DNA of 64,000 bases from an uncultured Candidatus Saccharibacteria bacterium (GTDB lineage: Bacteria; Patescibacteriota; Minisyncoccia; Phycocordibacterales; UBA918). The stretch is from contig CAYGTV010000001.1 in the NCBI GenBank assembly GCA_964353135.1, forward strand, positions 18,696 to 82,695. Reading direction: 5' to 3'. The notes below the pieces were generated by a model. The model worked only from the letters and a program-made list of their open reading frames with translations, had not been told where the DNA came from and did no database searches. Shown here one piece after another: positions 14,863-33,100 of this stretch (position 1 is its first letter; each line of letters opens with the position of its first letter). A program made the position numbers and the translations under genes.

Positions 14863-14914
14863 ATAACTCTGGTATAATCGACCCGACTTACACACAAACT
14901 AATTGCTATTTGCT

Positions 14915-15499
14915 ATGGAAATTAACCCAACCCTACTAAAAGAACTACGAGACAAAACAGGCATCTCTGTGATGCAGTGCAAAAAGGCGCTTGAAGAAGC
15001 AGAAGGTGACATGGATAAAGCAGTCATCATTCTTAAAAAAAGGCGGGCAGAAGCAGCAGACAAGAAGTCTGATCGAGAGCTTGGCGCTGGTGCCGTTGGG
15101 GTATATGTACATAATACCAACGAAGTAGCTGCTATGGTATTGCTTGCCTGCGAAACGGACTTTGTTTCTAAGAATGAAGAGTTTATTGCGTTAGCAAAAG
15201 ACATTGCTATGCATGTTGCAGCCAGTGATCCAAAGTTCATCTCTAAAGATGAGCTCCCAGCCGATGCTACCGAAAAAGCGAAAGAAGTATTTGCGCCTGA
15301 ACTAGAAGGGAAACCAGAAGAGATGAAAGAAAAAATTATGGAAGGGAAACTGGCTTCATACTTTAAGGATCAGATCCTACTAGAGCAAGACTTCATCAAA
15401 AATCCAGAGCACACAATCGGTGAAATGGTAACTGGAGCGATTCAGAAGTTTGGTGAAAACGTATCTATCGCACAGATCTCTCGAGTGTCTGTAAAATAA
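14915..15499 (+). CDS. tsf: elongation factor Ts (short form)
   Basis: MEINPTLLKELRDKTGISVMQCKKALEEAEGDMDKA is the UBA-like N-terminus of EF-Ts. It directly follows rpsB. ATG at 14915; the track start at 14903 is TTG. Confidence 0.85.
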   Translation: MEINPTLLKELRDKTGISVMQCKKALEEAEGDMDKAVIILKKRRAEAADKKSDRELGAGAVGVYVHNTNEVAAMVLLACETDFVSKNEEFIALAKDIAMHVAASDPKFISKDELPADATEKAKEVFAPELEGKPEEMKEKIMEGKLASYFKDQILLEQDFIKNPEHTIGEMVTGAIQKFGENVSIAQISRVSVK

Positions 15500-15503
15500 C
15501 GTC

Positions 15504-15899
15504 ATGCTACTGATCCCGGTCAGTGTATTTGCCTCAGCTGCAGTTCTATTGACTGTGGCTTTGGTAGTCGTGAGTCGCGAGCAGCGGCGCAACGATCGAC
15601 TATTTTTAGGTCGACTGCGAAACTGGCTAGATCGGGTGTGCGAATCTACAGCAAGAAGTGCAAGGGGGTTTGTTCATGTGATCGCGATTTCAGTGATGTA
15701 TCTAGTTCATCATTTTCGCTCAGCCTTGTCCAAGGCTATTGCGCCCCGACCACGGCGCCCAAAAAAGCAGCCTGATCGATTGCAGTTTGAAAAAACTGAC
15801 AACCACCTTAGCTCAATGCACGAACATAAAAGTGATACCGCACTCACTCCAGCCCAAAAGAAAAAACTGCGCAACCAGAAACTAGAAGAAAGATTATAG
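15504..15899 (+). CDS. hypothetical small membrane protein with basic C-terminus
   Basis: N-terminal hydrophobic helix followed by an Arg/Lys-rich tail; no recognisable domain. Confidence 0.35.
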   Translation: MLLIPVSVFASAAVLLTVALVVVSREQRRNDRLFLGRLRNWLDRVCESTARSARGFVHVIAISVMYLVHHFRSALSKAIAPRPRRPKKQPDRLQFEKTDNHLSSMHEHKSDTALTPAQKKKLRNQKLEERL

Positions 15900-15924: not shown

Positions 15925-17700
15925 ATGCAAACAGAAAACTACTCTGGAGATATTCCACGTACGCCGCTGCGGTTTATTGCGTACTTATCCAAGCCTTCAA
16001 AATGGTGGGCTATTACTTCGTTTGTAACTGCCGTTGCGGCTCAGTTGCTTGAAGTAGTAGCGCTATACGTTGTTGCTCGGTTTGTTGATGCATTTTCTGT
16101 CGCACAAGGAGTTACTGCGCAGCTAGATGCTTTCTACTATTGGGGTCTTGTCTTTTTGGGTGTGATTGTTGTCGAGCGAGCCCTATGGAGAGTTTCTGGT
16201 TTTACAGGAATCAAGTGGTTAGTTGAGATGAATGCCAATGGCTATAACACTTTATTTGAATATACTGTTTCGCATAGTCATAATTATTTTGCGAGTCGTT
16301 TTGCCGGTTCAATTTCAAACAAGGTTTCAAATGCGGTTGATGGTGCAACACGTCTGTTGGAGCGGCTGCTATGGGGGATGATTCCGCAGATCATTTCTCT
16401 GGTAATTGGTATCTATGTTTTCTTTACTGTTCATTGGTTAATGGGGGTTGGCTTTTTAACCTTCCTGGTGTTGGTGTTTATATTCAATGTTAAATTTACT
16501 TTGTGGCGTCGACCATACGTGGTTGATTATTCTCGTTCATCATCAAAAATGCGAGGAGAAGGGGTTGATCTGATGTCAAACATTTCCGCTGTTCGACAAT
16601 ATGCACACCGCGATAACGAACTAAGTCGTATCGCACTAGCAATTGAAGAGAGGGCTAGAAAAGATAAAAAGCAGTGGTTTCTGGGTGACTGGTTGATGGT
16701 GATCAACACGGTCTTTGGTCTGCTTGTCACAGCTGCAATTTTATACGGTACGTATGTAATGGTTGGGCAAAATGCAATAACGACAGGAACAGTAGTTCTG
16801 ATCCTAACGATTCTTGGGCGGGTTGGCTACGCCTTTACCCATATAGGCAACATGCTCAATAACTTTATTCGCTTATATGGTGAATCTGAAGAAGGCCTTG
16901 ATAGTATTTTGGTCGATCATGAAATTGTTGATACGTCTAATGCTAAACAGTTGGTGGCTGGTGGGGGAGCGATCGAATTTAGTGACACCTCGTTCTCGTA
17001 TGAAAAGAAGACTATCTTTGATGCCCTCAACATTAAAATCGAGCCCGGGCAGAGAATCGGGTTAGTGGGCCCCTCTGGTGCTGGGAAGTCGACACTAGTG
17101 TCACTGCTGCTTCGACAGCATGATATTGATGCAGGGGCGATTTTGATCGATGGCCAAAACATCGCTGAGGTGACTCAGGATTCACTGCGACAAAGCATTG
17201 CTCTAGTTCCACAAGAACCGATGCTGTTCCATCGCACCATTCGGGAAAACATCATGTATGGGAAACCAGACGCAACTGATGAAGAGATGGTGCAAGCAGC
17301 AGAACGTGCGCAAGCACGAGAATTTATCGAAGTCCTACCAAAAGGGTACGACACGCTGGTGGGAGAGCGGGGAGTGAAGCTCTCTGGTGGGCAAAAACAA
17401 CGAGTAGCGATTGCGCGAGCAATGTTAAAAGAAGCTCCTATTCTGGTGCTTGATGAGGCGACTAGTGCGCTTGATAGTGAAAGTGAGGTAGCGATCCAAA
17501 AAGCCTTAGAAACACTCATGGAAGGCAAGACAGTGATTGCGGTCGCACACCGATTGTCGACACTGCGCAAGATGGATCGTATCTTGGTAATCGACAATGG
17601 TCAGATTGTCGAAGACGGCACACATGACTCGCTCGCTGATGCTGGTGGCATGTATTCTAAACTGTGGGCGCACCAGGCTGGGGGATTTCTGCAGGAGTAG
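15925..17700 (+). CDS. ABC transporter, fused permease/ATP-binding protein (MsbA-like exporter)
   Basis: Six TM helices in the N-terminal half; Walker A GPSGAGKST; signature LSGGQKQRVAIARA; Walker B ILVLDEATSALD. Confidence 0.85.
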   Translation: MQTENYSGDIPRTPLRFIAYLSKPSKWWAITSFVTAVAAQLLEVVALYVVARFVDAFSVAQGVTAQLDAFYYWGLVFLGVIVVERALWRVSGFTGIKWLVEMNANGYNTLFEYTVSHSHNYFASRFAGSISNKVSNAVDGATRLLERLLWGMIPQIISLVIGIYVFFTVHWLMGVGFLTFLVLVFIFNVKFTLWRRPYVVDYSRSSSKMRGEGVDLMSNISAVRQYAHRDNELSRIALAIEERARKDKKQWFLGDWLMVINTVFGLLVTAAILYGTYVMVGQNAITTGTVVLILTILGRVGYAFTHIGNMLNNFIRLYGESEEGLDSILVDHEIVDTSNAKQLVAGGGAIEFSDTSFSYEKKTIFDALNIKIEPGQRIGLVGPSGAGKSTLVSLLLRQHDIDAGAILIDGQNIAEVTQDSLRQSIALVPQEPMLFHRTIRENIMYGKPDATDEEMVQAAERAQAREFIEVLPKGYDTLVGERGVKLSGGQKQRVAIARAMLKEAPILVLDEATSALDSESEVAIQKALETLMEGKTVIAVAHRLSTLRKMDRILVIDNGQIVEDGTHDSLADAGGMYSKLWAHQAGGFLQE

Positions 17701-17774: not shown

Positions 17775-17836
17775 AAACTAAAAGAAAAACTGCCAGAATT
17801 ACACTTATGTAATTCTGGCAGTTTTTCTTTTAGTTT
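17775..17836. terminator. 29-bp perfect inverted repeat (4-nt loop) between the convergent ABC exporter gene and tRNA-Thr; bidirectional terminator
   Basis: aaactaaaagaaaaactgccagaattaca ctta tgtaattctggcagtttttcttttagttt; A-run on the 5' side and T-run on the 3' side. Confidence 0.6.
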
Positions 17837-17871
17837 CTCGCCATTGGCTCGATTTACTATCCTCGTATCGG

Positions 17872-17944
17872 AGCCACCTGTCAGGCTCGAACTGACGACC
17901 TACGCGTTACAAATGCGTTGCTCTACCAACTGAGCTAAGGTGGC
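17872..17944 (-). tRNA. tRNA-Thr (anticodon UGU)
   Basis: The reverse complement folds as a cloverleaf: 7-bp acceptor GCCACCT/AGGTGGC, D-arm GCTC..GAGC, anticodon loop TTTGTAA, T-arm GTCAG TTCGAGC CTGAC, discriminator U; no encoded CCA. Confidence 0.8.
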
Positions 17945-18122: not shown

Positions 18123-19676
18123 ATGAGCGAAGACTCTCATCTATTGCCATATGCTCGTCGTGCTGATTTTAAAGTCGCTCGGGCAACTGAACTAACGGGT
18201 CGCGACCGTCGGTTTTATCGGTTCCTAGAAATTGTCCCTGGGGTGGCTGCCTGGGGGACATTGATCGGGATAGTGTGGGCATCGATCTATGCGTCCTTTT
18301 TTGCGGCGTACTTCATCATTGCCTTTGCTATCTATTGGGTTTTGAAAACCATCTTTCTGTCCTACCACGTACGGTATAACTGGAAACGCCTCAAACATCA
18401 CATGGAATTGGACTGGGGTGTATTGGTTTCTCGATTTGAATATGATGAATATCATCACTTAGTGATCTTTCCATTTTATGAAGAGCCTTATGAAGTGCTC
18501 GAGGGTGCCATGAAAGGTTTAATAGAAGCCAACTATGATCCGCAAAAACTGATTGTTGTCCTGGCAGCAGAGGGTCGAGTCGGTGCATCAGCTATAGAAA
18601 AAGCAGATCGAATCGCAGCCGAGTTTGGTTCCAAATTTGGAAACTTCCTAGTATCGGTGCATCCCCAAGACACCCCTGGAGAGATCGCTGGAAAAGGTTC
18701 AAATGTGCATTATGCTTTACATCAGGTACATAACAAAGTAATTGCCCCACAACACATCTCACATAAAAACATCCTTGTATCTATTTTTGATGTCGATACA
18801 GTCATTTACCCAGATTACTTCAACTGTCTAATTTGGCATTTTATGACCGCCGAGAATCCATACAAAAGTGCGTTCCAGCCAGTACCGTTGTTCACAAACA
18901 ACCTATGGGAAGCTTCTGCCGTATCGCGTGTGATGGCGATGTCTAGTACATTTTGGCAAATGATCATGCAAGAGCGACCAGACAAAGCCGCAACGTTCTC
19001 GTCGCACTCAGTTAGTTACCAGGCACTGTATGAGATCGGGTATGGCCAAGCCAACGTAGTGAGTGAGGACTCGCGCATCTACTGGAACCTACTTTTGGCC
19101 AACGATGGGTATTTTGACGTGGTGTCACTGTCGTACCCGATTGCGATGGATGCAACCACAGCAGCAAGCACGTGGGGAACAATTAAAAATATCTATAAGC
19201 AGCATCGTCGCTGGACGTACGGGGTAGAGAACTGGTGCTACTTGGTGTATCACTTCTCTAAACACAAGGCGATCCCGTTGCGACGTCGCTGGTCCATCGC
19301 TCTACAGCAAGGGGAAGGGTATTGGTCACTAGTAACCAACCCAATCATGCTGTTTATTTTGGGCTGGACGCCGATTTTCCTCGGGTCACGAGAATTCCAT
19401 GAAACCGTACTATCGTACGAGTTACCAATCATGGTTCGTAACCTACTGACTGTAGCCATGCTCGGTTTAGTTTTTTCTTCAATTATTTCACTGTCACTTA
19501 CTCCGCCGCGGCCTGAGGGATACAGCCGGTTCCGCTACGTCGTAATGGCGCTGCAGTGGATTATGGTTCCAATCACGATGATTGTGTTTAGTGCGATCCC
19601 TGGGCTCGATGCCCAGACTCGCTTGATGCTCGGTCGATATATGGGATTTTGGGTCACACCTAAACGGTTACAATAG
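18123..19676 (+). CDS. processive family-2 glycosyltransferase (membrane-embedded polysaccharide synthase-like)
   Basis: N- and C-terminal TM segments flank a GT2 core with the D,D,D motifs (FDVDT) and the QxxRW motif (QHRRW) typical of cellulose/chitin/hyaluronan-type synthases. Confidence 0.7.
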   Translation: MSEDSHLLPYARRADFKVARATELTGRDRRFYRFLEIVPGVAAWGTLIGIVWASIYASFFAAYFIIAFAIYWVLKTIFLSYHVRYNWKRLKHHMELDWGVLVSRFEYDEYHHLVIFPFYEEPYEVLEGAMKGLIEANYDPQKLIVVLAAEGRVGASAIEKADRIAAEFGSKFGNFLVSVHPQDTPGEIAGKGSNVHYALHQVHNKVIAPQHISHKNILVSIFDVDTVIYPDYFNCLIWHFMTAENPYKSAFQPVPLFTNNLWEASAVSRVMAMSSTFWQMIMQERPDKAATFSSHSVSYQALYEIGYGQANVVSEDSRIYWNLLLANDGYFDVVSLSYPIAMDATTAASTWGTIKNIYKQHRRWTYGVENWCYLVYHFSKHKAIPLRRRWSIALQQGEGYWSLVTNPIMLFILGWTPIFLGSREFHETVLSYELPIMVRNLLTVAMLGLVFSSIISLSLTPPRPEGYSRFRYVVMALQWIMVPITMIVFSAIPGLDAQTRLMLGRYMGFWVTPKRLQ

Positions 19677-19685
19677 TAAATACAT

Positions 19686-20849
19686 ATGCCACAAGAACCA
19701 CAAATCTCAGGAATGTCAGCACGCCGAAGAATGGTATTTTTCTGGGGACTGGTTATGGTGTTTTTGTTCGCACTACCGGTAATGATTTTTTACACGACGG
19801 GTTATCGCCTGACGTTTGAAGAAGATGCTGCAACTATGGTGGTAACTACTGGTGGGGTGTACGTATCTACTCAGAGTACTGACGTAGAAGTGTTTTTGGA
19901 CGAAGAGCAGATTGAACGGCCACGTTTGTTTAGGAGCGCGTATTACATTCAAAACATTGATGCTGGCTTGCGCCGGGTAGTGGTGCAAGGAGAGGGACTG
20001 CAGACATGGGTAAAAGAAATCCCGGTTGACTCGCGGATTGTAACAGAAGCAGCAGCATTTAATTTGCCTGCAACGCCCCAACTTCGACCCGTGACAGAAT
20101 TCCAAACAGTGACCGGCGAAGCGGTATTTTTTGCAAGCTCTACTCCAACTAGACTGTTTGCAAACGCGACCTCTACGCAGGATTTTATTGTCTCTACAAC
20201 GAGTCGTACTACAGGGTATGTGTTAAATCCAGAACATGAATTTGTAGTTAGTCTGTTTGGCACAAGCACCGCGACGTCAACCTCGATTTTTGCTGACTTT
20301 TTACGTGATATGGATCGGTTTAGGTTTGTAACTCCCGAGGAAGAAGTATCCACGACCTCTACCACCACCCCAGAAATAATTGAACGAAACAACATCCAGT
20401 TAGTTGCTCGTGGGTTAGAGCTGTTTGCTGTTTGGCGGGGTGAACCCAATGATGTCCCGTATTATTTCTGTGTCAGTAGTTCAACTCTTGCTAGTACTAG
20501 TGAACGGTATGGTGAGCACGTTGCAGACGCGATTTTTTCACAACTTGGAACCACTACGGCAACCTCAACTTTGGTGACAGTTGACGATCGAATGTGCCGA
20601 ACTGAAATCAAATTGGATCGGCTTCGCCAAGATGTGTACTTGTACGATTTCTTCCCAGGTTCGTCTGACTTGGTGCTGCTACAGCTAGAAAATGGTTTGT
20701 ACGTGACGGAAATCGACGACCGGTCATGGCAAAACTCGCAACTGTTGTACCCGGGCACAAACTTTAGAACGATTATTGAAAACGGCTTGATCTATATTGA
20801 GCAAGGTAACGACTACTTTGAAATTATCCCTGAAATTGAAGCAAATTAA
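19686..20849 (+). CDS. membrane-anchored hypothetical protein with PEGA-like beta domain
   Basis: N-terminal TM; GGVYVSTQSTDVEVFLDEEQ...GLRRVVVQGEGLQTWVKEIPV resembles the PEGA domain pattern; starts 10 nt after the GT2 gene. Confidence 0.45.
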   Translation: MPQEPQISGMSARRRMVFFWGLVMVFLFALPVMIFYTTGYRLTFEEDAATMVVTTGGVYVSTQSTDVEVFLDEEQIERPRLFRSAYYIQNIDAGLRRVVVQGEGLQTWVKEIPVDSRIVTEAAAFNLPATPQLRPVTEFQTVTGEAVFFASSTPTRLFANATSTQDFIVSTTSRTTGYVLNPEHEFVVSLFGTSTATSTSIFADFLRDMDRFRFVTPEEEVSTTSTTTPEIIERNNIQLVARGLELFAVWRGEPNDVPYYFCVSSSTLASTSERYGEHVADAIFSQLGTTTATSTLVTVDDRMCRTEIKLDRLRQDVYLYDFFPGSSDLVLLQLENGLYVTEIDDRSWQNSQLLYPGTNFRTIIENGLIYIEQGNDYFEIIPEIEAN

Positions 20850-20854
20850 GCATA

Positions 20855-21595
20855 GTGCTAGACTACAAATCTATGAACAACCAACCTGGACACCAACATC
20901 CACTTACTCAAATGATTGACGAAATCAATCATATTTTTGCCGAGATCGGTTTTGTGTTTGCTGAAGGTCCAGAAGCGGAAACCGAGCACTACAATTTCGA
21001 TCAGTTAAATGTACCCAAAGACCATCCGTCGCGCGATATGCAGGATACGTTTTGGTTCAAAGATGCAGACGTGGCAGAACCAACTGTGCTGCGTACCCAT
21101 ACCAGTCCGGTTCAAGCTCGATATATGGAGAAACATGGCGCACCATGCAAAATTATCGTTCCTGGAAAAGTGTTTAGAAACGAAACAACTGACGCCACTC
21201 ACGAAGCGCAGTTTTACCAGTTAGAGGGATTACATATCGACAAAGGAATTCACCTTGGTCATCTAAAAGGCACTCTTGAATATTTCTTTTCAAAATTCTT
21301 TAGTGGGAAAACCGAAGTACGTTTTAGGCCGAGTTTCTTCCCGTTTGTTGAGCCTGGAGTAGAGGTCGATATGCGACTGCTCGAAGGTGACAGTAAACTA
21401 GCTGGAAAATGGATCGAAGTGATGGGGGCTGGGATGGTGCACCCAAACGTACTAACAGCAGCTGGTGTAAATCCTGATGAATTCTCTGGCTACGCATTTG
21501 GCATGGGTATCGATCGGCTCGGTGTGATGAAATACGGAGTAGAAGATGTACGAGATTTTTATACAGGAGACCTTCGGTTCGTTAATCAATTTTAA
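20855..21595 (+). CDS. pheS: phenylalanyl-tRNA synthetase alpha subunit (catalytic core only, short form)
   Basis: Class II motifs including FRPSFFPFVEPGVEVD and GMGIDRL; only 246 aa, so the usual N-terminal extension is missing. The track start is GTG; an in-frame ATG follows at 20873. Confidence 0.85.
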   Translation: MLDYKSMNNQPGHQHPLTQMIDEINHIFAEIGFVFAEGPEAETEHYNFDQLNVPKDHPSRDMQDTFWFKDADVAEPTVLRTHTSPVQARYMEKHGAPCKIIVPGKVFRNETTDATHEAQFYQLEGLHIDKGIHLGHLKGTLEYFFSKFFSGKTEVRFRPSFFPFVEPGVEVDMRLLEGDSKLAGKWIEVMGAGMVHPNVLTAAGVNPDEFSGYAFGMGIDRLGVMKYGVEDVRDFYTGDLRFVNQF

Positions 21596-21597
21596 TT

Positions 21598-22245
21598 ATG
21601 ATCGTTATTACAGGAGCGAGCGATGGTTTAGGTATAGAAGTAGCAAAACTATATAAAGAAGCAGGGAAACAGGTAGTTAATTTGTCACGTCGAGAATGTG
21701 AGTACGCAGACGTTAATATCTGTGGATCTTTGAGTGAAGGAGACGGGATTATCTCAGCAGCAAAACAGGTCTTGCAGTTAGACGGAAAACTTGAGGCAAT
21801 TGTGAATTGTATTGGTGTATTTTCTAAGCAAGGCTTTGGAAATCTCGAAGAAGACGAAATCAAAAGACTTATGTCTACCAACGTCAAAGCACCAATGCTG
21901 CTCATTTCTGAATTGATGGAACGTGTTCTCACGGATGAGACCGACATTGTGAATGTGTTATCTACAGCAGCAGTTGATGCAAAAGCAAATGAGCCTCTCT
22001 ATTCTGCATCCAAGTGGGCAGCTCGAGGAATGACTGATAGTTTGCAGAAAAAACTATGGAACACAAAGTCACGAGTAGTGAGTTTTAGTCCAGGAGGAAT
22101 GTCAACCGATTTTTTTGAAAAAGTAAACGTCGAAATCCCTAGAGATGATTTTATGGATCCGGCAGAAATAGCAAAAGCAATCAAATTCACGTTAGATTTA
22201 CCAAAAAATATTGAGGTAAGTAATATTGTGTTAAATAGGAAATAA
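21598..22245 (+). CDS. short-chain dehydrogenase/reductase (SDR) family protein
   Basis: TGASDGLG (TGxxxGxG cofactor motif) and YSASK (YxxxK catalytic motif); 215 aa; wedged between pheS and pheT with 2-nt gaps on both sides. Confidence 0.7.
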   Translation: MIVITGASDGLGIEVAKLYKEAGKQVVNLSRRECEYADVNICGSLSEGDGIISAAKQVLQLDGKLEAIVNCIGVFSKQGFGNLEEDEIKRLMSTNVKAPMLLISELMERVLTDETDIVNVLSTAAVDAKANEPLYSASKWAARGMTDSLQKKLWNTKSRVVSFSPGGMSTDFFEKVNVEIPRDDFMDPAEIAKAIKFTLDLPKNIEVSNIVLNRK

Positions 22246-22247
22246 AT

Positions 22248-24200
22248 ATGATCGTAAACTACAACTGGCTCAAAGAATACGTGGGAGAAAAACTTCCTGA
22301 ACCGTCAAAGGTGGAAGAGCTTTTAACTGAGCATGCGTTTGAAATCGAAGGAGTAGAAGAGGTCGCTGGTGAAACGGTAATCGATGTCGATGTGCTACCA
22401 AACCGTTCGTCTGACTGTTTGTGTCACCGGGGGATTGCTCGAGAGCTCGCTACTATCCTAGATATACAGCTTGAAAAAGATCCGTTAGCAACCGAACCGC
22501 AATTAGCAGAGACTGATAAAATCAGTGTAAACATCGCAGATACAGAAGCCTGTCCACGCTTTAGTGCTTCACTAGTTACAGGGATCAAAGTTGGTGAATC
22601 ACCAGAGTGGCTGAAAGTTCGCCTGGAATCACTTGGGCAACGCAGCATCAACAATATCGTCGATGCAACCAACTACGTCATGTATGCAGTAGGGCAGCCA
22701 TTGCATGCCTATGACGCAGACCTCTTTCCACAGGTAGACGGCACATGGCAGTTTGGTGTGCGGTATGGAAATGAAGGGGAGGTGGTAGAAATCCTTCCCG
22801 AAGGAGGAAGTATAGAACCTCGGCAGGTTATGTGTACAGGGACAGAGCTACTCATCGTTGATGAATCGAGCAACACACCAATTGGGCTCGCTGGCGTAAA
22901 GGGTGGGCAGTTTGCCGGTGTGCATGCAGGTACGACTAACATCATCATCGAAGCGGCTCACTTCCACCCAACTATCACAAGAAAAACAGCTCGCCGGCTG
23001 GGGATCGTTATCGATGCTTCTAAGCGATTTGAAAATGAATGCGCGCGGGAACTGCCACCGTACGCCCAGTTTGAAATCATCAAACTCATCAAACAAATCG
23101 CTGGTGGAGAATATCAGGGGACAATTGATGTCTATGCAGAAGAAAAAAAGAATCCTGCTGTTGACCTGAGAGTGTCAAAAACCAATGCGCTCCTTGGGCT
23201 TGAATTAACCCAAGCTCAAATTAAAGATATTATTTTGCGAACAGGCAGCACGGTAGAAGAAAAAAAACCAGGAACACTTGCATGTACTGGTCCCTGGGAA
23301 CGAACCGACCTGTTGATCGAAGAAGACTTTATTGAAGAAGTGGGTCGTCTGTATGGACTATCTAACATCATTTCGATCGTGCCTGGTACAGACACTGTGC
23401 CAGCAGTAAATCCGCGACAGCACTACTCAGAAAAGATTCGACAGACACTGCTTGGTCTAGGGTTTTCTGAAGTCATCACCTCGTCTTTTCAGAAAAAAGA
23501 TAAAATCCAACTGCGTAACGCTCTTGCTAGTGATAAGTCGTACATCCGCAGCACTCTGGCAAAAAACATGCACCAAGTCCTGGATGCAAACTTCTCACAC
23601 ACGGACCTATTAGGTATTCGTTCAGTCCAAGCATTTGAAATTGGAACTGTGTTTGAAAAGACTGAAAGTGGAGTAGGAGAACATTTGTCACTCGCGATTG
23701 GAGTACGACAAAAAGGGGGAGGCTATACTCCAAAAGACGACGCACCACTTCAGGCAGCTATAGCAGAACTGCAAGAAACACTCGGAGCAGATACTCCAGC
23801 TAACTGGAGTATCGAGAAGGGAGTAGCCGAAGTCAGCTTGTCTGAAGTAATTGATTCACTCCCAGTTCCTGAATCATATGAAGCGCAGGTAGAGCGAGTA
23901 GCTTCTACCTACAGTCCTGTCTCACCTTATCCAGCCATGGCTCGCGACATCGCACTTTGGGTTTCAAATTCTCCGGGGGAGGATTTGAAAAATGATGTGT
24001 TGCAGACTTTAGAAAGTGCTGCTGGTGACCTATGTGTCCGCATTGATCTATTTGATGAATTCACCAAAGACGGCCGAACTTCGTATGCCTTCCGACTAGT
24101 GTTCCAAGCATCTGACCGTACGTTAACTGACACCGAGGTGGGAGAAGTAATGGAAGAAATAAACAGTGTAGTGCGAGATAATAAATGGGAAGTCAGATAG
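22248..24200 (+). CDS. pheT: phenylalanyl-tRNA synthetase beta subunit (short form)
   Basis: N-terminus MIVNYNWLKEYV matches the PheT start; B3/4 and B5 regions are recognisable; 650 aa, about 150 aa shorter than typical bacterial PheT. Confidence 0.85.
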   Translation: MIVNYNWLKEYVGEKLPEPSKVEELLTEHAFEIEGVEEVAGETVIDVDVLPNRSSDCLCHRGIARELATILDIQLEKDPLATEPQLAETDKISVNIADTEACPRFSASLVTGIKVGESPEWLKVRLESLGQRSINNIVDATNYVMYAVGQPLHAYDADLFPQVDGTWQFGVRYGNEGEVVEILPEGGSIEPRQVMCTGTELLIVDESSNTPIGLAGVKGGQFAGVHAGTTNIIIEAAHFHPTITRKTARRLGIVIDASKRFENECARELPPYAQFEIIKLIKQIAGGEYQGTIDVYAEEKKNPAVDLRVSKTNALLGLELTQAQIKDIILRTGSTVEEKKPGTLACTGPWERTDLLIEEDFIEEVGRLYGLSNIISIVPGTDTVPAVNPRQHYSEKIRQTLLGLGFSEVITSSFQKKDKIQLRNALASDKSYIRSTLAKNMHQVLDANFSHTDLLGIRSVQAFEIGTVFEKTESGVGEHLSLAIGVRQKGGGYTPKDDAPLQAAIAELQETLGADTPANWSIEKGVAEVSLSEVIDSLPVPESYEAQVERVASTYSPVSPYPAMARDIALWVSNSPGEDLKNDVLQTLESAAGDLCVRIDLFDEFTKDGRTSYAFRLVFQASDRTLTDTEVGEVMEEINSVVRDNKWEVR

Positions 24201-26985: not shown

Positions 26986-28050
26986 CTAGTTAGCAAATGT
27001 CACTCGTTGTTCGAATGCATCGTTTCGACTGTTTCGGTCGGTTGATTCGTCAACAGAAACTTCAAATGTATGAGAAGCGTCAGATCCGGCTGCAAAGCCA
27101 ATCGTGAGTACTGCTCGTTCATTTGGTTTTAGTGGGACTTGGACTGGTGAGTTGTACGTACCACCATTTGGAAGTGACACCTCAAATGTCCAGTTGCTAG
27201 AAGTCTTGGTCCCAAAGTTCTTGACTGAGAATTGGATTGCTCCACCTTCGTTAGCCTCTACTGTGCCTGGGACAAACCGGTTGCTTACTATATCACCAAC
27301 AGCGATAAACGAAGTCGATAGGTCTGTGACACCATTTGGGTCAGAAGTAGGGATTTCGTATACAAATTCCTGTTCAAACACTGGTGTGCTTGGCGTTGGT
27401 GTAACTGGAGTGATCACCGCTGGTGTCTCTGGTTCTGGTACGGCTGGCACTTCAGGTTCTACTACTACTTCGTTGGTGAGTTCACCTGAGTCAGTATTAA
27501 ATACAAATCCATTTACTTCCTCGTTGATGATAGTTACCACGTCTGAACCCATTGCTCGTGGTTCGGTGTCGTTTGTTGATAGAAATCCAACACTATATGT
27601 GACGTCAGTGTATCGATTTTTTTCAGATTCAATAGCTACAGTGAGTGATGTTACATCACCGACATTGTAATTTGTGTCACACGCTAGCTGTCGTTCAACA
27701 GTTCCTTCAATTTGGTTGACAGCAACTCCATCAATACAGTCATAGGCAAACACGTATGATCCCCTGGCGTTGGCTGATTCCCATTCAATATCAAGCGCTT
27801 CACCTGTTTTCATGAGTGACGTGTTGCTAGTGACAATAATTGGTTCCATCACGTCATCCTCAACCATTGTTTCAGATGCCTGATCGACTCCTTCTGCAAG
27901 CGAAGCGAGTGATGTCAGGGCGTTAGGGAATAATTGAACTAGTTGAATTGAAAGCCAAGCTAGCAGTAGTACGATAGCGACGAATCCTGCAACAGCAAAT
28001 GTATTGAGGATCGACACTTTCTTTTGTGGTGATACGTTATTTGTTTCCAT
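26986..28050 (-). CDS. membrane-anchored extracellular hypothetical protein (Pro/Thr-rich linker)
   Basis: N-terminal signal anchor; PEVPAVPEPETPAVITPVTPTPSTP linker; beta-rich C-terminal domains; divergent from the sortase gene. Confidence 0.5.
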   Translation of the reverse strand: METNNVSPQKKVSILNTFAVAGFVAIVLLLAWLSIQLVQLFPNALTSLASLAEGVDQASETMVEDDVMEPIIVTSNTSLMKTGEALDIEWESANARGSYVFAYDCIDGVAVNQIEGTVERQLACDTNYNVGDVTSLTVAIESEKNRYTDVTYSVGFLSTNDTEPRAMGSDVVTIINEEVNGFVFNTDSGELTNEVVVEPEVPAVPEPETPAVITPVTPTPSTPVFEQEFVYEIPTSDPNGVTDLSTSFIAVGDIVSNRFVPGTVEANEGGAIQFSVKNFGTKTSSNWTFEVSLPNGGTYNSPVQVPLKPNERAVLTIGFAAGSDASHTFEVSVDESTDRNSRNDAFEQRVTFAN

Positions 28051-28149
28051 AGTTGACGTATAGTAGCATAGATTACACGAATGTCAACATTAAAATGTCG
28101 CTTTGTCTAGGTTGGTCATTGACGGGTAAATCTGTAGGGAAGATAAACA

Positions 28150-28178
28150 TTGACAATTACAATAAATAGTGCTACTAT
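28150..28178 (+). promoter_or_regulatory. sigma70-like promoter of the sortase gene (TTGACA-17-TACTAT), implying a leaderless or very short-leader mRNA
   Basis: TTGACA at 28150-28155, a 17-nt spacer, TACTAT at 28173-28178; the first in-frame ATG of the sortase lies at 28189. Confidence 0.45.
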
Positions 28179-28188
28179 CCTATGCATT

Positions 28189-28884
28189 ATGCATTTTTCT
28201 GACACTGTAAAAGCCATCTGGGCTAATAAAATAAGCTTCTTTGGAGTATTCTTCATTATTTTTACCGTTCTATACACGGTACTTTTCCTAGTTGATTTTC
28301 TCCCAGAGGCACCCGAAGCTAGGCCAGCTACAACCGAAGTAACTGAAGTTGCTTCGGCTGTAGACGTTGCGCCAGTGGTAATCCAGACACCAGCGGTTGC
28401 AGAGTCAGAATTGGTAGCTGAAACAGTCGTTAGTGCATCAGCACCTGATATGCCAATTAGTATTTATATTGAACGACTCGACAAGACAATCGATGTGTTG
28501 AACCCACAATCACGATCAATTGCTGATCTCGATAACGCTCTATTGTCAGGAGTGGTGCGACACCCAGACTCTGCGACACCTAATATTGATGGAAATGTAC
28601 TGATCTTAGGACACTCTAGTTATTTGCCAAATGTTCTCAACAAGAACTTTCAGGCTTTTAACGGCGTTCAAAACCTAGAATGGGGTGATACGATCACGAT
28701 AACTTCAGAAAATGCAGTGTATACCTACCGGGTAGAGCGGGTATATGAAGCACGAGCGAGTGAAATCACCGTTCCAATTGCTGGCGACGCAAAACTACTT
28801 ACTCTAGCGACCTGTGATAGTTTTGGAAGTGTAGATGACCGTCACATCGTAGAAGCCAAGCAAATTAGCGTTGAATTGCTGTAA
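28189..28884 (+). CDS. sortase family transpeptidase
   Basis: N-terminal TM anchor; catalytic His in LILGHSSY; TLxTC-type Cys motif LTLATCDSF; conserved Arg 10 residues downstream (VDDRH). Confidence 0.75.
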   Translation: MHFSDTVKAIWANKISFFGVFFIIFTVLYTVLFLVDFLPEAPEARPATTEVTEVASAVDVAPVVIQTPAVAESELVAETVVSASAPDMPISIYIERLDKTIDVLNPQSRSIADLDNALLSGVVRHPDSATPNIDGNVLILGHSSYLPNVLNKNFQAFNGVQNLEWGDTITITSENAVYTYRVERVYEARASEITVPIAGDAKLLTLATCDSFGSVDDRHIVEAKQISVELL

Positions 28885-28920
28885 AAGCGACATTTTACCT
28901 ACATATATTAGAATACAAAA

Positions 28921-28950
28921 GAAAGCACTTGACAAGAGTGCTTTCTTTTG
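28921..28950 (+). terminator. terminator hairpin after the sortase gene, overlapping the next promoter
   Basis: gaaagcact tgacaag agtgctttc followed by ttttg; the 7-nt loop contains the -35 hexamer TTGACA of the downstream promoter. Confidence 0.5.
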
Positions 28951-28957
28951 CTATAGT
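28929..28957 (+). promoter_or_regulatory. consensus sigma70 promoter (TTGACA-17-TATAGT) driving the small lipoprotein gene
   Basis: TTGACA at 28929-28934, a 17-nt spacer, TATAGT at 28952-28957; the downstream gene has an AGGAG ribosome-binding site 7 nt before its ATG. Confidence 0.5.
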
Positions 28958-29022
28958 ACTAGACATAAAGAAACCAAGATCCTTAGGGCAAAGTGCTCAG
29001 ATCTTCAAACAGGAGACGCAAA

Positions 29023-29400
29023 ATGCGTATTACGACAATTTTGGCAGCAGCTGCTGTATCACTCTCTGCTTGTGCATCGTTTGATGGTTCTCGAGGCATC
29101 ACTGCTGCCTACGTCGAAGGTGATCGGGTCATTGTCGAAACGGTCTCCGGACGTATTGGCGATTTTCCAAAATATCGGATGTGCACATGGGCGCACATCA
29201 ACATCGATCAGGAGGAGAGTTACCGGCTTCGCGCTAACCGCGATTCGACCGAACGGAGTATCCTTGGGGTCACAATCGAGGGTCTCGATTGTCCGTTTGT
29301 CAAACCACGCGAAGGTTCGGGCGGCGGCGGTGTCCGGCAGACAGACTTCGTTGAAGACACAAATCCGACCAATGACCAACCATCACGTGGTCAGCAGTAG
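29023..29400 (+). CDS. small putative lipoprotein (Cys-containing, secreted)
   Basis: MRITTILAAAAVSLSAC is a signal peptide with a lipobox-like LSAC; strong promoter and ribosome-binding site; lies in a local GC-rich stretch (about 60% versus about 45% background). Confidence 0.5.
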   Translation: MRITTILAAAAVSLSACASFDGSRGITAAYVEGDRVIVETVSGRIGDFPKYRMCTWAHINIDQEESYRLRANRDSTERSILGVTIEGLDCPFVKPREGSGGGGVRQTDFVEDTNPTNDQPSRGQQ

Positions 29401-29534
29401 TAAGAATACAACCCCTCCAGCAAAACATCGCTGGTGGGGTTGACTTTTTATATTATGTGTGCTAATCTTGTAGAAATCAAGTACAGGACCAAAGAGACCT
29501 TTGACTTCAAATTTTCACAGCCTTGGAGGGCATC

Positions 29535-30065
29535 ATGGAAAAAATCTATACATTACTGGCAGGTGCTTTCCTTACGGTAATCACTTGTGTCGCCGCCGCC
29601 GCGCCGACAACAGTTGAGGCTCAAACAGCCCCAACCACAACTTCTGAATGTGTTTCAGTCGTTGTCGATCTCTACTGCCAAAAAGCTCATGATGGTCTGT
29701 TTATTGGAGACCGGGAGGTAGAAACCGTTCAAATCACGGTTTGTGCACTTCCCGAACACTGGGCCGCAATCCAACGCCAAGACCCCAACGATTCATGGTG
29801 GGGAGAGGCGCTAGCGGACACAGGCCGCCCTGATCTGCGATGGCTCAAGATCCGAGCAATCAAGGAGCAGTGTCGCATTCGTCATGCACCAATCGGTGCA
29901 CGAGTCGGTACGAGATACCTCTGCCCACCAACAGTCGAGGGTTGGTATTGGACAGAGGTTGTGACTGGACCTGGGACATACTTCATGTCTATTCCGGTAT
30001 CAGACACCACTCCAAATCCAGCCAACCCAGACCCGGATGAGAACGTCCCAGCTCTCATTGGTTAA
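29535..30065 (+). CDS. small secreted Cys-containing hypothetical protein
   Basis: MEKIYTLLAGAFLTVITCVAAAAPTTVEAQ signal peptide; GGAGG ribosome-binding site 7 nt upstream of the ATG at 29535 (the track start at 29523 is TTG); same GC-rich patch. Confidence 0.5.
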   Translation: MEKIYTLLAGAFLTVITCVAAAAPTTVEAQTAPTTTSECVSVVVDLYCQKAHDGLFIGDREVETVQITVCALPEHWAAIQRQDPNDSWWGEALADTGRPDLRWLKIRAIKEQCRIRHAPIGARVGTRYLCPPTVEGWYWTEVVTGPGTYFMSIPVSDTTPNPANPDPDENVPALIG

Positions 30066-30199
30066 GTGAAAAGTAGATCGGCTGTAAAGGCCGATCTACA
30101 TGAATCAAACTGGATTCAGACGAGTTGTTACGACAACTCTTTTAATCCGATTTTATTCGGTGCAGACAAATTTAGAAACAAATTACTTACAATATATTT

Positions 30200-33100
30200 A
30201 TGAAAACAATCTCACAATCATTTATTTTCGCTGGAATCGTACTTGCACTACTTGCTGGTGTATTTGCTTTTTCTGCAATGACTGCTGATGCCTATGGTTC
30301 AAGTTGTGGATCATGTGATGCACCTGACACAGGTGGAGGAAGTATCGGTGGTGGAGGCGGTGGATCTACTCCACCTTCTGTTACACCCCCAGTTTGTGAT
30401 ATCGATGTAGATCTAGACGTTGTAGCAGTTGGAGAATTTTACACCATTGACTGGAATGTTATTTCAGCATCTCCAGTTAACGTATACATCAACGGTGACC
30501 ATGTAGAAAAGACAGGGGAAGCAACTTATGATTTTCTTGCCTCAACACCAGAACTAGAATTTTTCAATCTAACAGCAGAAAATGCTGGAGGTACATGTTC
30601 TGATCGAGTTGAGATTAGAAAAAAAGTAGTCGAAGAAAAGAAATGTGAACTTGAAATCACAAAATCTGTCGACAAGCACTCAGCTACACCTGGAGAAGAA
30701 CTAACGTACGAGATCAAAGTTGAAAACATTGGTACAGCTGACTGTACTGGAGGAGGGGTTAAGATCGAAGACGTTCTAGACACTAACTTTGAGTACGTAA
30801 GTAATACCTACACCAGTAACCTGACAGAAGGCTACGGATCTGCACCCGTTTATACAGCCTCTACCCGAACAATTCGATTCAATGGAAACACTCTTACTCC
30901 AGGTGAATCAGGAACTATCGTACTATTTGGAAAAGTGGCGACACCACACACATGTGGAGACTTTGAAGTAAAAAACCAAGCTTTTGCCACGGCTTTCGAA
31001 CTAGATAACTTTAATGACTGGGTATACAGTAATGTCGTAAAGACTAACGTTGACTACGATTGTGAAGTGCCTGCGCCACTATGTACGTCATTTACAGCTA
31101 CACCTGGAACTCTTCCAGCAGCTGGTGGAACAGTGGTTCTTGATTGGGACCTACTAAACGTAGCGACTGCTGTAATCGACAACGGAGTTGGAGAAGTGCT
31201 TGCTAATGTTGGATCAAATTATGGTTCAGTTTCTGGGTCACAAACAACGGTCGTAACACAATCAACTACATTTACCTTAACGGCAACAGATGTGGACGGA
31301 GACAAAACTACCTGTAAAGCGCCAGTAACTGTACCAACAGACAATCCTACACCACCACAATGTCCACTAGTCGCAAAAGACGGTCGAACAATTGTAAATT
31401 TCTCAGGAATGAAACTGCGAACTGACCGAACTGCTAACGATGCAGTAACAGCAATCCAATCAGCCGCATTCCCAGTTGGGGAGTATGACATCACGCTTGT
31501 TTCTTGGGACGGATACACCAATCGTGTAAACGCTTCACAGCCAAACGAACAGTGGAAACTAGAGTTCATGAACGGTTCAGCAGTGATTGCTGGATCAGGA
31601 ATCATCGGTGATCTAGCTGATAACGTGATCGAAGCAACAAAGATTGAGCAGGTGAACACGGATTTCACGTTAGCAACTGCAGCGACCGGCGTACGAGCAA
31701 TCCACCCATTCTACCCAGCGTCATCACCAAACAGTCTGTACCCAATTTGTGCAGCAATTGATGAAAAACCGAAAGAAGTAGTGCCACCATCATGTGATAT
31801 GTTCACCGCTACACCGGCGACTATCACAGTTGGAGGAACAGCTACCCTTGCATGGGAATCAACCAACGCTGTCCAAGCATTCATCAACAACGCAATCGGC
31901 GCAGTGGATGTAGACGGAACTATCGAAGTGTCACCATTAGCTGATACAACCTACGTCCTAACACTGATCGGTGCAGAAGATAATACTGTTAACTGTAACG
32001 TACCGGTGAAAGTTGTAGATGAGCCAGTCATGGAATGTGTCGCATTTACTGCGAGCCCATCAGCTCTACCAGTAGGAGGTGGAAACACAACTCTTGCGTG
32101 GGAAGTAATCAACGCAGTATCGGTATCAATCGATAACGGTATTGGCGCGGTTGCACTAACTGATACGCGGGTTGCAGCAGTAACAGAGTCAACGACCTAC
32201 ACCCTCACAGCAACTGATGCTGATGGTGATACAGTTTCATGTATCGCGCCAGTGGCTGTAGCTGATCCGGGAGTGTTTACGTGTGAAGACAACGTCTCAT
32301 TCTCTGCAAGTGATACATCTATCACTCGAGGACAAAGTTCAACTCTTAATTGGGATGTAACAGATGCTGATTCAGTATCTATCTCAGGAATTAGTGCTAC
32401 TACCTTTACTGGTTCACAATCAGTATCACCATCAAGTGACACTACCTATACACTGACAGCAACAAAATCAGGCTTTGAAACTATCTCATGTCCAGTAAAG
32501 ATCAACGTATCTACTGGCGGTGGGGGAGGTGGTACACCAACACCACGTTGTGAACTAGAGATTTCTGACACTCGGATCAACGCTGGAGACGAAATCACAC
32601 TAACGTGGGATTCAACTAACGCTCGAGAACTGACCCTAACTGATAACTTTGGCAACACCCTCGTTACGACAGAAGATAAACTAAGTCGTGATAAAGATGA
32701 TTTGTTTGAAGGAAGTATTGATTTGAACCCAACTCGAAACACAACGTATACACTCCTAGTTGAGCGAGGTTCACGAGATCGAGAATGTGAAGTTAAAGTT
32801 GAAATGGATGATGACGTTGTGCTACTACAGGTTCGAGACCAAGCTCCACTAGTGTCAGGTATCTCGCTAACGCAAGTGCCGTACACCGGATTTGAAGCGG
32901 GACCAATCATGACAGTACTGTTCTACATGCTACTTATCACGTGGGCGCTATACATCACCTATGTACTGGTGATGCCAAAAGCACAGCTTGCAATGGTTCC
33001 AGTAAAGAACAGTTCACTGCGAACTAACGAAGACCTCATGCAACATGCAGAGCAAATTCGACCAGATGTGTTTGCCGCCGTATCAGCCGCACCAGTTGTG

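Follow-up and report, generated by a model that had tools for sequence, protein, structure and literature searches.

A conserved pair of genes for a cellulose-synthase-like glycosyltransferase and a membrane-anchored surface protein in CPR bacteria

Hardly anything is known of the envelope of CPR bacteria (Patescibacteria), a group with very few cultivated members. The locus described here, part of a 64,000-nucleotide stretch of DNA that was analysed as a whole (the window), raises the question of whether two neighbouring genes encode a system that makes and exports a surface polysaccharide, as an earlier sequence-only reading had proposed. Both open reading frames on which that proposal rested are present. 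An ATG-start frame at 18123..19676 encodes a membrane-embedded, cellulose-synthase-like glycosyltransferase of 517 aa (GT2), and 9 nt past its stop codon a second ATG-start frame, at 19686..20849, encodes a single-pass surface protein of 387 aa (N-in, C-out), here called the partner; all features lie on the plus strand unless otherwise stated. Because their relatives are so numerous (more than 4,300 database relatives for GT2, 473 for the partner, and 2,165 representatives in a partner profile search), both are real genes rather than chance frames. Together they form a unit of two genes that is strongly conserved among the ultra-small bacteria of the CPR/Parcubacteria. In the literature within our scope, outside which most subscription journals lay, we found no description of the pair, or of any cellulose-synthase-like enzyme in CPR bacteria.

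Fold, motifs and membrane segments of the glycosyltransferase

Searches of all PDB chains (phmmer and hmmsearch) with both proteins and with GT2 profiles built from 6 and from 144 sequences returned no significant match, so that fold and profile-profile methods were needed. No NCBIfam family matched GT2 or its partner, GT2 scores 30 bits against a Pfam cutoff of 27, and its sequence similarity to characterised synthases is marginal. Its best structural match is BcsA, at an identity of about 15-16% in structural alignments and with no plain PDB match alongside; hhalign pairs it with E. coli BcsA at a probability of 87.7% (E 3e-6, 215 columns); the value for PgaC, aligned over the TED and QxxRW regions, is slightly higher (90.2%). 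Hyaluronan synthase (HAS) aligns structurally over 370 residues, and the transmembrane (TM) helices that flank the GT2 catalytic domain superpose on those of solved synthases.

FDVDT (222-226) and QHRRW (360-364), two of the features from which a processive synthase had been proposed, are both present, and SEDSR (314-318) was found besides. The DxD motif D223-V-D225 (18789..18797), which lies inside FDVDT as a metal/nucleotide-binding motif on a GT-A catalytic domain, is invariant in 144 family sequences and lines up with FDCD in E. coli BcsA. S-E-D 314-316 (19062..19070) is the counterpart of the TED catalytic-base motif, aligning with TED of both BcsA and PgaC; in the same 144 sequences D316 is invariant, and S314 and E315 are at least 90% conserved. 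QHRRW (19200..19214) is the QxxRW motif, carried on a long helix (350-380); hhalign sets it against QRIRW of BcsA and QRLRW of PgaC, and Q360, R363 and W364 are invariant across the 144 sequences. SED and QxxRW are thus in register with both synthases. The sequence-only interpretation is supported, and the outcome named in advance as its refutation, a core closest to polyprenyl-phosphate GT2 enzymes in which QxxRW is absent, did not materialise. KGSN 191-194 aligns with the KAGN motif of BcsA in hhalign. The QxP region is represented by QPVP 252-255, of which Q252, P253 and P255 are invariant, and is placed by hhalign against SPDP, not QTPH, of BcsA.

Hydrophobic segments lie on both sides of the core (~36-82 and 386-502), in agreement with the sequence-only reading. 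The first is a TM hairpin identified by hydropathy (residues ~36-82; 18228..18368), preceded by a basic cytosolic segment and modelled by AF2 as helices 26-56 and 58-95; 17 of its 47 positions are at least 90% conserved, including E36, W44 and W72. The second comprises helices 386-411, 429-457 and 470-502 of the AF2 secondary structure (19278..19628), in which 38-42% of positions are conserved at that level and in which polar or aromatic residues are among the invariants (S402, T405, N406, W415, Q478 and W479). The membrane helices are conserved to the same degree as the catalytic core. Three residues from the C-terminus, after the last helix as in BcsA, stands FWVTPK 509-514 (19647..19664), which follows the FxVTxK gating-loop pattern defined for synthases of the BcsA/CesA/CrdS/BgsA type, where it comes after interface helix 3 (PMC10592267, PMC6821405). 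E. coli BcsA has FNVTAK at 617-622. Within the GT2 family, 142 of 144 members have [FWY]x[VI]TxK in their last 35 residues, with 2-19 residues following it, and a distant clade spells the motif YKVTEK. From the charges of the loops alone, FWVTPK would be cytosolic. With a hydropathy of 2.05, helix 470-502 is rather hydrophobic, and if it spans the membrane then the C-terminal motif would lie outside, where no gating-loop role is possible.

The second-best structural match is PcManGT (Pyrobaculum calidifontis, PDB 6yv7), which we take to be a non-polymerising archaeal mannosyltransferase of N-glycan assembly and not a polymer exporter. This match favours an alternative that we consider unlikely, in which GT2 is a non-processive or briefly processive glycosyltransferase with a 'minimal cellulose-synthase-like fold'. 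Working at the cytosolic face of the membrane, it would then transfer a single sugar or a few to a glycan linked to polyprenyl-(pyro)phosphate, or else make a glycolipid by glycosylating a membrane lipid, its membrane helices binding the lipid acceptor rather than forming a channel, and another component would flip or finish the product. GT2 is 170 residues longer than PcManGT, with an extra N-terminal TM hairpin and an invariant FxVTxK tail. Against the alternative, the GT2 family keeps the whole motif set of processive synthases, including the acceptor Trp of QxxRW and an invariant gating loop whose described role is in polymerising beta-glucan synthases (PMC10592267). The ranking of BcsA as best match and the length of the HAS alignment argue in the same direction, as does the observation that DPMS, ArnC and GtrB match structurally only the GT-A core (ArnC at 1.5% in hhalign). 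A WecA neighbour would also fit the elongation of a lipid-linked primer by a synthase, and the main clade lacks such neighbours. Were the single-sugar alternative true, GT2 would represent a core step of envelope-lipid glycosylation in a lineage thought to scavenge lipids.

The partner protein and its place in the gene order

The partner is a surface protein that had not been described before. It is anchored in the membrane and, as had been noted, has one N-terminal hydrophobic helix and is beta-rich; its Ser/Thr content is 18.6%, and some 350 residues lie outside the membrane. The TM anchor (residues 15-36; 19728..19793; hydropathy 2.6; helix 12-38 in the model) is preceded by RRR and contains the invariant residues F19, L22, F26, P31 and Y36. 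Directly past it is a PEGA-like domain (residues ~47-116; 19824..20033), recognised by homology to relatives, in which PF08308 scores 23.9-26.1 bits (cutoff 20.8; residues 46-112) and is found at E<=1 in 29 of 83. The partner encoded in the window gives no PF08308 match even at E<=1, and AF2 models this segment with low confidence; its PEGA membership is therefore by homology transfer, since the relatives match and this copy does not. Of the 'PEGA-like domains' proposed earlier, one PEGA-type domain stands; the plural was imprecise, and the window copy falls below Pfam significance. A variable, Ser/Thr-rich middle region follows (residues ~117-231; 20034..20378), which is the least conserved part of the protein and is shortened or missing in variants of 280-300 aa that match the profile in two to three separate stretches. 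The C-terminal domain (residues ~232-387; 20379..20846) is beta-rich, resembles beta-propeller blades and contains an invariant Cys262/Cys304 pair.

Upstream transcription units are closed by a bidirectional terminator hairpin with a 20-bp stem (17782..17829, no strand assigned), past which the unit of the module begins. Intergenic gaps from GT2 through pheT are 9, 5, 2 and 2 nt, and no plus-strand terminator was found between 18123 and 24200. In all testable main-clade loci the partner lies directly downstream of GT2. Because the order rpsB-tsf-...-GT2-partner-pheS-pheT-gyrB is conserved as a whole block, however, this adjacency is partly inherited gene order and by itself weak evidence of a functional link. 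It might be that GT2 is a synthase and the partner an independent surface protein, of the wall, S-layer or host-adhesion kind, adjacent only by virtue of the conserved housekeeping block, a prospect that we regard as doubtful. PEGA domains are typical of proteins of the surface-layer type generally, the partner has evolved much more quickly than GT2 (median identity 48% versus 76%), and GT2 relatives at 31-49% identity have no partner next door. Likewise, no relation of the partner to BcsB was detected, in domain homology or in a C-terminal TM anchor, and none to PgaD (hhalign 0.2%); nor does the partner share the build of PgaD/IcaD, small proteins made up almost entirely of TM helices. Against independence, the pair remains adjacent and co-directional where the other flanks have changed (L058, L065, L045, L049, L021 and L057), and the gap between the genes is tiny (median 8 nt) or becomes an overlap (-31 in L062, -14 in L082). 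The slot upstream of GT2 varies freely, unlike the partner side, holding an ABC exporter and a tRNA in the window, glycoside hydrolases in L074 and a 630-aa protein in L076. Further, few parts of the partner are as conserved as its TM helix and juxtamembrane segment, which would be unusual for a mere anchor.

Additional components were sought upstream. A small conserved ORF (15504-15899) was rejected as a third subunit, as it keeps a fixed short distance behind tsf and lies 155 to 4,624 nt from GT2; an MsbA-like ABC exporter (15925-17700) was rejected as the export component of a conserved module, as it sits in the variable slot and occurs in 4 of 71 loci (L001, L002, L016 and L064). The glycoside hydrolases beside GT2 in L074 and L075 are GH1 beta-glucosidase-like, below the NCBIfam cutoff; in that same variable slot they are weak evidence only, and were set aside as a pointer to a beta-glucan product.

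In its slow rate of evolution GT2 is on a par with PheS, EF-Ts and GyrB. This ranking is unchanged in loci found through the protein database, which disposes of the explanation that it is an artefact of how loci were found. Conservation at housekeeping level is atypical for exopolysaccharide synthases, which counts against such a role, and differs from that of BcsA-BcsB; the cells seem to need the putative polymer and to be unable to do without it. The slow evolution, the thousands of Parcubacteria-type sequences and the lineage-specific partner make the pair a testable candidate for the source of a core wall or surface polymer.

A candidate minimal system for polysaccharide synthesis and export

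We propose, with a probability of roughly 0.55, that GT2 and its partner form a minimal polysaccharide system, of the synthase-dependent kind, in a CPR bacterium with a single membrane; the pair probably builds and exports a sugar polymer. The reality of the genes, the fold class, the correspondence of the motifs, the conserved adjacency and the slow evolution are shown, while processivity, export, contact between GT2 and the partner, and the product are inferred. GT2 would be an inverting enzyme of the cellulose-synthase type, with a cytosolic N-terminus and two TM helices followed by a cytosolic GT-A domain that binds the nucleotide sugar via DxD and KGSN. D316 of SED would act as catalytic base, W364 of QHRRW would hold the growing chain by its acceptor end where the membrane helices begin, and, as in BcsA and CesA, the FWVTPK loop may fold over the active site and clamp the nucleotide in the intervals between rounds of elongation. 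The conserved membrane helices would be the path along which the chain is pushed outward. The continuous transmembrane conduit and the coupling of polymerisation to export are predictions, and GT2 lacks the pair of helices found past the gating loop in BcsA, so that a complete channel within it is putative. Since GT2 ends after that loop and has only some four to five TM helices, the TM helix of the partner may pack against it and complete or stabilise the conduit. The PEGA beta-sandwich would then sit directly over the exit, and the distal, propeller-like domain could guide, bind or organise the polymer in the wall.

Comparison with known systems bears on this proposal. BcsA has four N-terminal TM helices where GT2 has two, and its TM7-8 and PilZ domain have no equivalent in GT2, which ends 3 residues past FxVTxK; because PilZ is missing, there can be no c-di-GMP switch of the BcsA type. 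The partner, anchored at its N-terminus, is unrelated to BcsB, and no BcsC or BcsZ genes were found nearby. For glycobiology, GT2 is a naturally truncated cellulose-synthase-type enzyme with no PilZ domain and a non-BcsB partner, and the pair could help to define the minimal parts for coupled synthesis and export. PgaC-PgaD and IcaA-IcaD resemble the CPR pair in that the synthase is small, has 2 + 3 hydrophobic segments and depends on a co-transcribed membrane partner, itself small; PgaD (137 aa), however, lacks an extracellular domain and is not similar to the 387-aa partner. The closest architectural precedent for the CPR pair is CslA-GlxA of Streptomyces, a wall-bearing single-membrane bacterium in which translation of a BcsA-like synthase is coupled to that of a protein encoded downstream (PMC11022532). 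GlxA combines an N-terminal TM helix with a large beta-rich domain outside the cell, lacks BcsB homology and is required for synthase activity (PMC11022532). Unlike the partner, which has no sign of a redox cofactor and instead bears a PEGA domain together with a few propeller-like blades, GlxA is a redox enzyme, a radical copper oxidase of 645 aa (PMC11022532); CslA in turn differs from GT2 in its seven predicted TM helices and partial PilZ domain.

A bolder extension of the minimal-system proposal, speculative and improbable as a whole, is that Parcubacteria-type CPR bacteria depend on a hitherto unrecognised core envelope polymer, probably beta-glucan-like, as indispensable to them as translation factors and made by the smallest known machine of the cellulose-synthase type. 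GT2, ending at the gating loop, would borrow the partner's TM helix for its export path, the two-to-three-blade C-terminal modules of the partners may form a ring above the synthase, and the polymer could serve host attachment or survival without lipid synthesis of the cell's own.

In the weakest step of the argument, KxxN, SED, QxxRW and FxVTxK would suggest that the product is a homopolymer with beta linkages, like a beta-glucan. That the product is instead built of N-acetylhexosamines, as a polymer or oligomer resembling PNAG, chitin or hyaluronan, we consider distinctly unlikely, although Foldseek puts hyaluronan synthases first, the hhalign probability slightly favours PgaC over BcsA, the GT2 stretch EIGYxxxxVSEDSRIxW resembles PgaC EVGYWSDDMITEDIDISW, and the EDxR spelling recalls the EDR motif of chitin synthases and NodC. 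PgaC, unlike GT2, has no FxVTxK. Class I HAS enzymes (CvHAS, XlHAS1), at 11-14% identity to GT2, work without a partner. Their gating loop is WGTR/KG, not FxVTxK (PMC10592267).

The glycosyltransferase: family, fold and membrane domain

Both ORFs are real genes, and lie where the sequence-only reading placed them: a 517-aa membrane glycosyltransferase (GT2; 18123..19676, plus strand) is followed after 9 nt by a 387-aa single-pass surface protein (the partner; 19686..20849, plus strand). Database relatives of GT2 number more than 4,300, the best 120 clusters of which are at 77-90% identity; for the partner, a word-seeded search gave 473 relatives and a profile search 2,165 cluster representatives. 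Automated labels for GT2 are 'glycosyltransferase family 2' or 'cellulose synthase/PNAG synthase-like', the partner is annotated 'hypothetical' in every database relative, and no account of the pair turned up in literature searches. The pair is a solid, testable finding that bears on the poorly known CPR envelope, and is conceptually unsurprising. We put a probability of roughly 0.55 on its being a minimal synthase-dependent system, the closest precedent for which is Streptomyces CslA-GlxA (PMC11022532). GT2 would use chemistry and gating of the BcsA type to polymerise a nucleotide sugar, and would thread the chain through its own membrane helices; the partner TM helix would complete or stabilise this conduit, with the PEGA domain at its exit.

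The FDVDT (residues 222-226) and QHRRW (360-364) motifs of GT2, and the hydrophobic segments on both sides of its central region, are as first described; an E-D motif, SEDSR (314-318), can be added. GT2 scores 30 bits against Pfam PF13632 (cutoff 27), falls in no NCBIfam family, and matched no PDB chain even when profiles of 6 or 144 sequences were used, so that by sequence it appears nearly an orphan. Structural matching was more informative (score, residues matched): BcsA (25.2, 359), PcManGT (22.6, 321 of 346), Chlorella virus HAS (20.1, 370), Xenopus HAS1 (18.7, 376), CesA (16.6, 369), CslF6 (16.4, 361), cyclic glucan synthase (15.0, 370) and chitin synthases (12.7-13.3, 341-344), followed by the polyprenyl-phosphate GT2s DPMS (12.6, 198), ArnC (10.4, 192) and GtrB (10.0, 196), whose match is limited to about 190-200 residues, approximately the size of the GT-A core. 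An independent Foldseek ranking placed hyaluronan synthases, BcsA and PcManGT on top, and chitin synthases after them. Profile-to-sequence alignments against E. coli proteins gave 87.7% for BcsA (E 3e-6) and 90.2% for PgaC (E 1.5e-6), as against 1.5% for ArnC and 0.3% for OpgH. The motifs stay in register in the BcsA and PgaC alignments (PFYEE/PTYNE, KGSN/KAGN, FDVD/FDCD, FSSHS/FFCGS, SED/TED, and QHRRW with QRIRW or QRLRW). Because of this register and the fold ranking, a dolichol- or bactoprenol-phosphate transferase without QxxRW, the case that would have undone the original proposal, does not describe GT2, which by motif and predicted fold would work like the D,D,D,QxxRW membrane synthases.

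The strongest rival, though a doubtful one, is that GT2 is an enzyme of the PcManGT type, transferring one or a few sugars to a glycolipid or a lipid-linked acceptor. PcManGT stands high in both structural rankings.

Positions at least 90% conserved make up 36-42% of the GT2 membrane helices and 35% of the catalytic core, and the helices contain polar and aromatic invariants, a pattern that suits a working membrane domain better than a simple anchor. Residues 1-35 (18123-18227), the basic N-terminal segment on the cytosolic side, carry conserved A21, L24, G26, D28, Y32 and R33, with R29-x-x-x-R33 spacing, and are possibly a regulatory or interfacial element.

The partner and its pairing with GT2

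As proposed, the partner has a single strongly hydrophobic N-terminal helix, preceded by RRR. The window copy gave no Pfam or NCBIfam match, but partner relatives score 23.9-26.1 bits for PEGA, above its gathering cutoff of 20.8. The match is at residues 46-112 in every case, right behind the TM helix, and 29 of 83 relatives match PEGA at E<=1. The earlier description of PEGA-like domains therefore stands for one domain, by homology transfer from relatives, and not for the rest of the protein, which forms a family with no structurally solved relative. The TM helix, juxtamembrane segment, PEGA-like domain and C-terminal beta domain are conserved, while the Ser/Thr-rich middle is variable and largely missing from 280-300-aa variants; Ser plus Thr total 18.6%, and the only two cysteines, 262 and 304, are invariant. 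These cysteines and the RRR-TM start agree with a surface protein whose N-terminus is inside and C-terminus outside. The partner is neither a BcsB nor a PgaD.

The 71 related loci fetched were drawn from as many GTDB species. A GT2 of at least 54% identity is present in 65 of them, and for one of the 65, L064, no sequence downstream is available. A complete partner ORF lies directly 3' of GT2 on the same strand in 63 of the remaining 64; in the last (L050) the ORF is partial because the contig stops within it. Gaps between the two genes have a median of 8 nt, and overlaps also occur. Pairing is also kept in relatives at about 50% identity found via the protein database (L072-L077), and was seen again in the reciprocal search from distant partner representatives (L082-L084). 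As the entire rpsB-to-gyrB block is syntenic, adjacency is weaker evidence than these counts imply, and the partner may, at slightly slimmer odds than the PcManGT-like alternative, be an unrelated surface protein held there by frozen gene order. Mere inheritance of gene order is disfavoured, because GT2 and partner stay together where flanks differ (L058, L065, L045, L049, L021, L057), the slot immediately 5' of GT2 is freely variable, and a small upstream ORF tracks tsf rather than GT2.

No adjacent partner was found beside GT2 relatives at 31-49% identity. In the 31% clade, GT2 heads operons (L067 2228-7703, L068 7415-12909, L071 7528-12928) that continue with a 548-569-aa multi-TM protein without family match (its start overlaps the GT2 end in L067 and L068), a 121-131-aa three-TM protein, a WecA-like GT4 transferase, a decaprenyl-phosphate phosphoribosyltransferase and a PMT-type GT-C; the gene set resembles an arabinan-like pathway of polyprenyl-phosphate glycan synthesis, here in a CPR genome.

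Across the 36 loci having all genes, median identities to the window proteins were 81% for GyrB, 79% for PheS, 77% for EF-Ts, 76% for GT2, 65% for S2, 58% for PheT and 48% for the partner. GT2 exceeded S2 and PheT in 36/36 loci, and the ranking was unchanged for loci reached by a route independent of GT2 peptides. As such conservation is unusual among exopolysaccharide synthases, it argues for a core function.

The gating loop and the nature of the product

GT2 ends GFWVTPKRLQ, and the FWVTPK within it, absent from the original description, corresponds to the FxVTxK gating-loop motif of BcsA and CesA, which follows interface helix 3, makes contact with UDP and is needed for activity (PMC10592267). 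The pattern [FWY]x[VI]TxK occurs 2-19 residues from the C-terminus in 142 of 144 aligned family members, with YKVTEK in the most distant clade, and no segment of the protein is more strongly conserved than its C-terminal tail, where 60% of positions reach at least 90% conservation. The element order (QxxRW helix, two TM helices, one further helix, FxVTxK) is that of BcsA through the gating loop; in E. coli BcsA, FNVTAK (617-622) lies between the sixth and seventh hydrophobic segments, whereas GT2 stops at the loop and lacks counterparts of the last two TM helices and the PilZ domain. We infer a cytosolic C-terminus, with which the loop charges agree (458-469 and 503-517 positive, 412-428 slightly acidic), yet helix 470-502 is hydrophobic.

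The gating-loop signature of GT2 is that of the beta-glucan branch; the architecture is not, and sequence similarity to that branch is only borderline. The motif set leans, as a weak step, towards a beta-glucan-type product. An N-acetylhexosamine polymer, to which the PgaC alignment and the high rank of hyaluronan synthases might point, is the least likely of the three alternatives. Hyaluronan and chitin synthases have WGTR/KG in place of FxVTxK (PMC10592267), and the PgaC sequence has no FxVTxK. Since each alternative addresses a different step of the explanation, their likelihoods do not add to one. In L074 (1799-4936) and L075 (910-4047), a GH1 beta-glucosidase-like gene, a 298-aa protein and a GH10/42/35-like gene lie directly 5' of GT2, a possible but weak hint of a beta-linked glycan.

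Genomic setting

The source names of the relatives (Candidatus Kaiserbacteria, Nomurabacteria, Zambryskibacteria, Paceibacterota, Minisyncoccales) place them in the Parcubacteria branch of the CPR/Patescibacteria. In gene content the window is typical of a reduced chromosome, with glycolysis, pentose-phosphate, rpoBC, dnaE and thrS genes, pilin-like proteins, large CARDB/DUF11 surface proteins and a sortase, the last of which fits a single-membrane, wall-bearing cell. What looks like a sortase-anchored surface protein cluster (26986-33703) comprises a CARDB-domain protein (26986-28050, minus strand), the sortase (28150-28884) and a 1,167-aa DUF11-repeat protein (30200-33703).

The neighbourhood runs rpsB, tsf, a small ORF, an ABC exporter, a bidirectional terminator (17782-17829), tRNA-Thr (minus strand), GT2, partner, pheS, SDR, pheT and gyrB. 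Because no plus-strand terminator was found between GT2 and pheT, and the gaps from GT2 through pheT are 9, 5, 2 and 2 nt, the pair is probably co-transcribed with pheST. The small ORF (15504-15899, plus strand; 131 aa, one N-terminal TM helix, no family match) was rejected as a companion of GT2: it is kept directly 3' of tsf in 49 fetched loci and the window, at 155 to 4,624 nt from GT2. The variable slot between tsf and GT2 is filled here by an MsbA/ChvA-like ABC exporter (15925-17700, plus strand; below all NCBIfam cutoffs), present in only 4 of 71 loci (L001, L002, L016, L064), and by the terminator, with its 20-bp stem, and tRNA-Thr(TGT), which together span 17782-17944.

The window PheS, PheT and EF-Ts are reduced translation proteins: PheS (20855-21595; 246 aa) matches only positions 64-322 of TIGR00468, PheT (22248-24200; 650 aa) matches positions 158-600 of TIGR00472, below its cutoff, and EF-Ts (14903-15499) is 198 aa. 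The 215-aa short-chain dehydrogenase between pheS and pheT (21598-22245, plus strand; 2-nt gaps) occurs in 0/71 related loci, and L072 has a DUF1653 gene in its place. In the Zambryskibacteria-type loci L074 (8344-10767) and L075 (7455-9878), an 807-aa PheT carries an NlpC/P60 peptidase match between B3_4 and B5, an unusual fusion for a subunit of a tRNA synthetase, and a Peptidase_C39_2 gene comes next.
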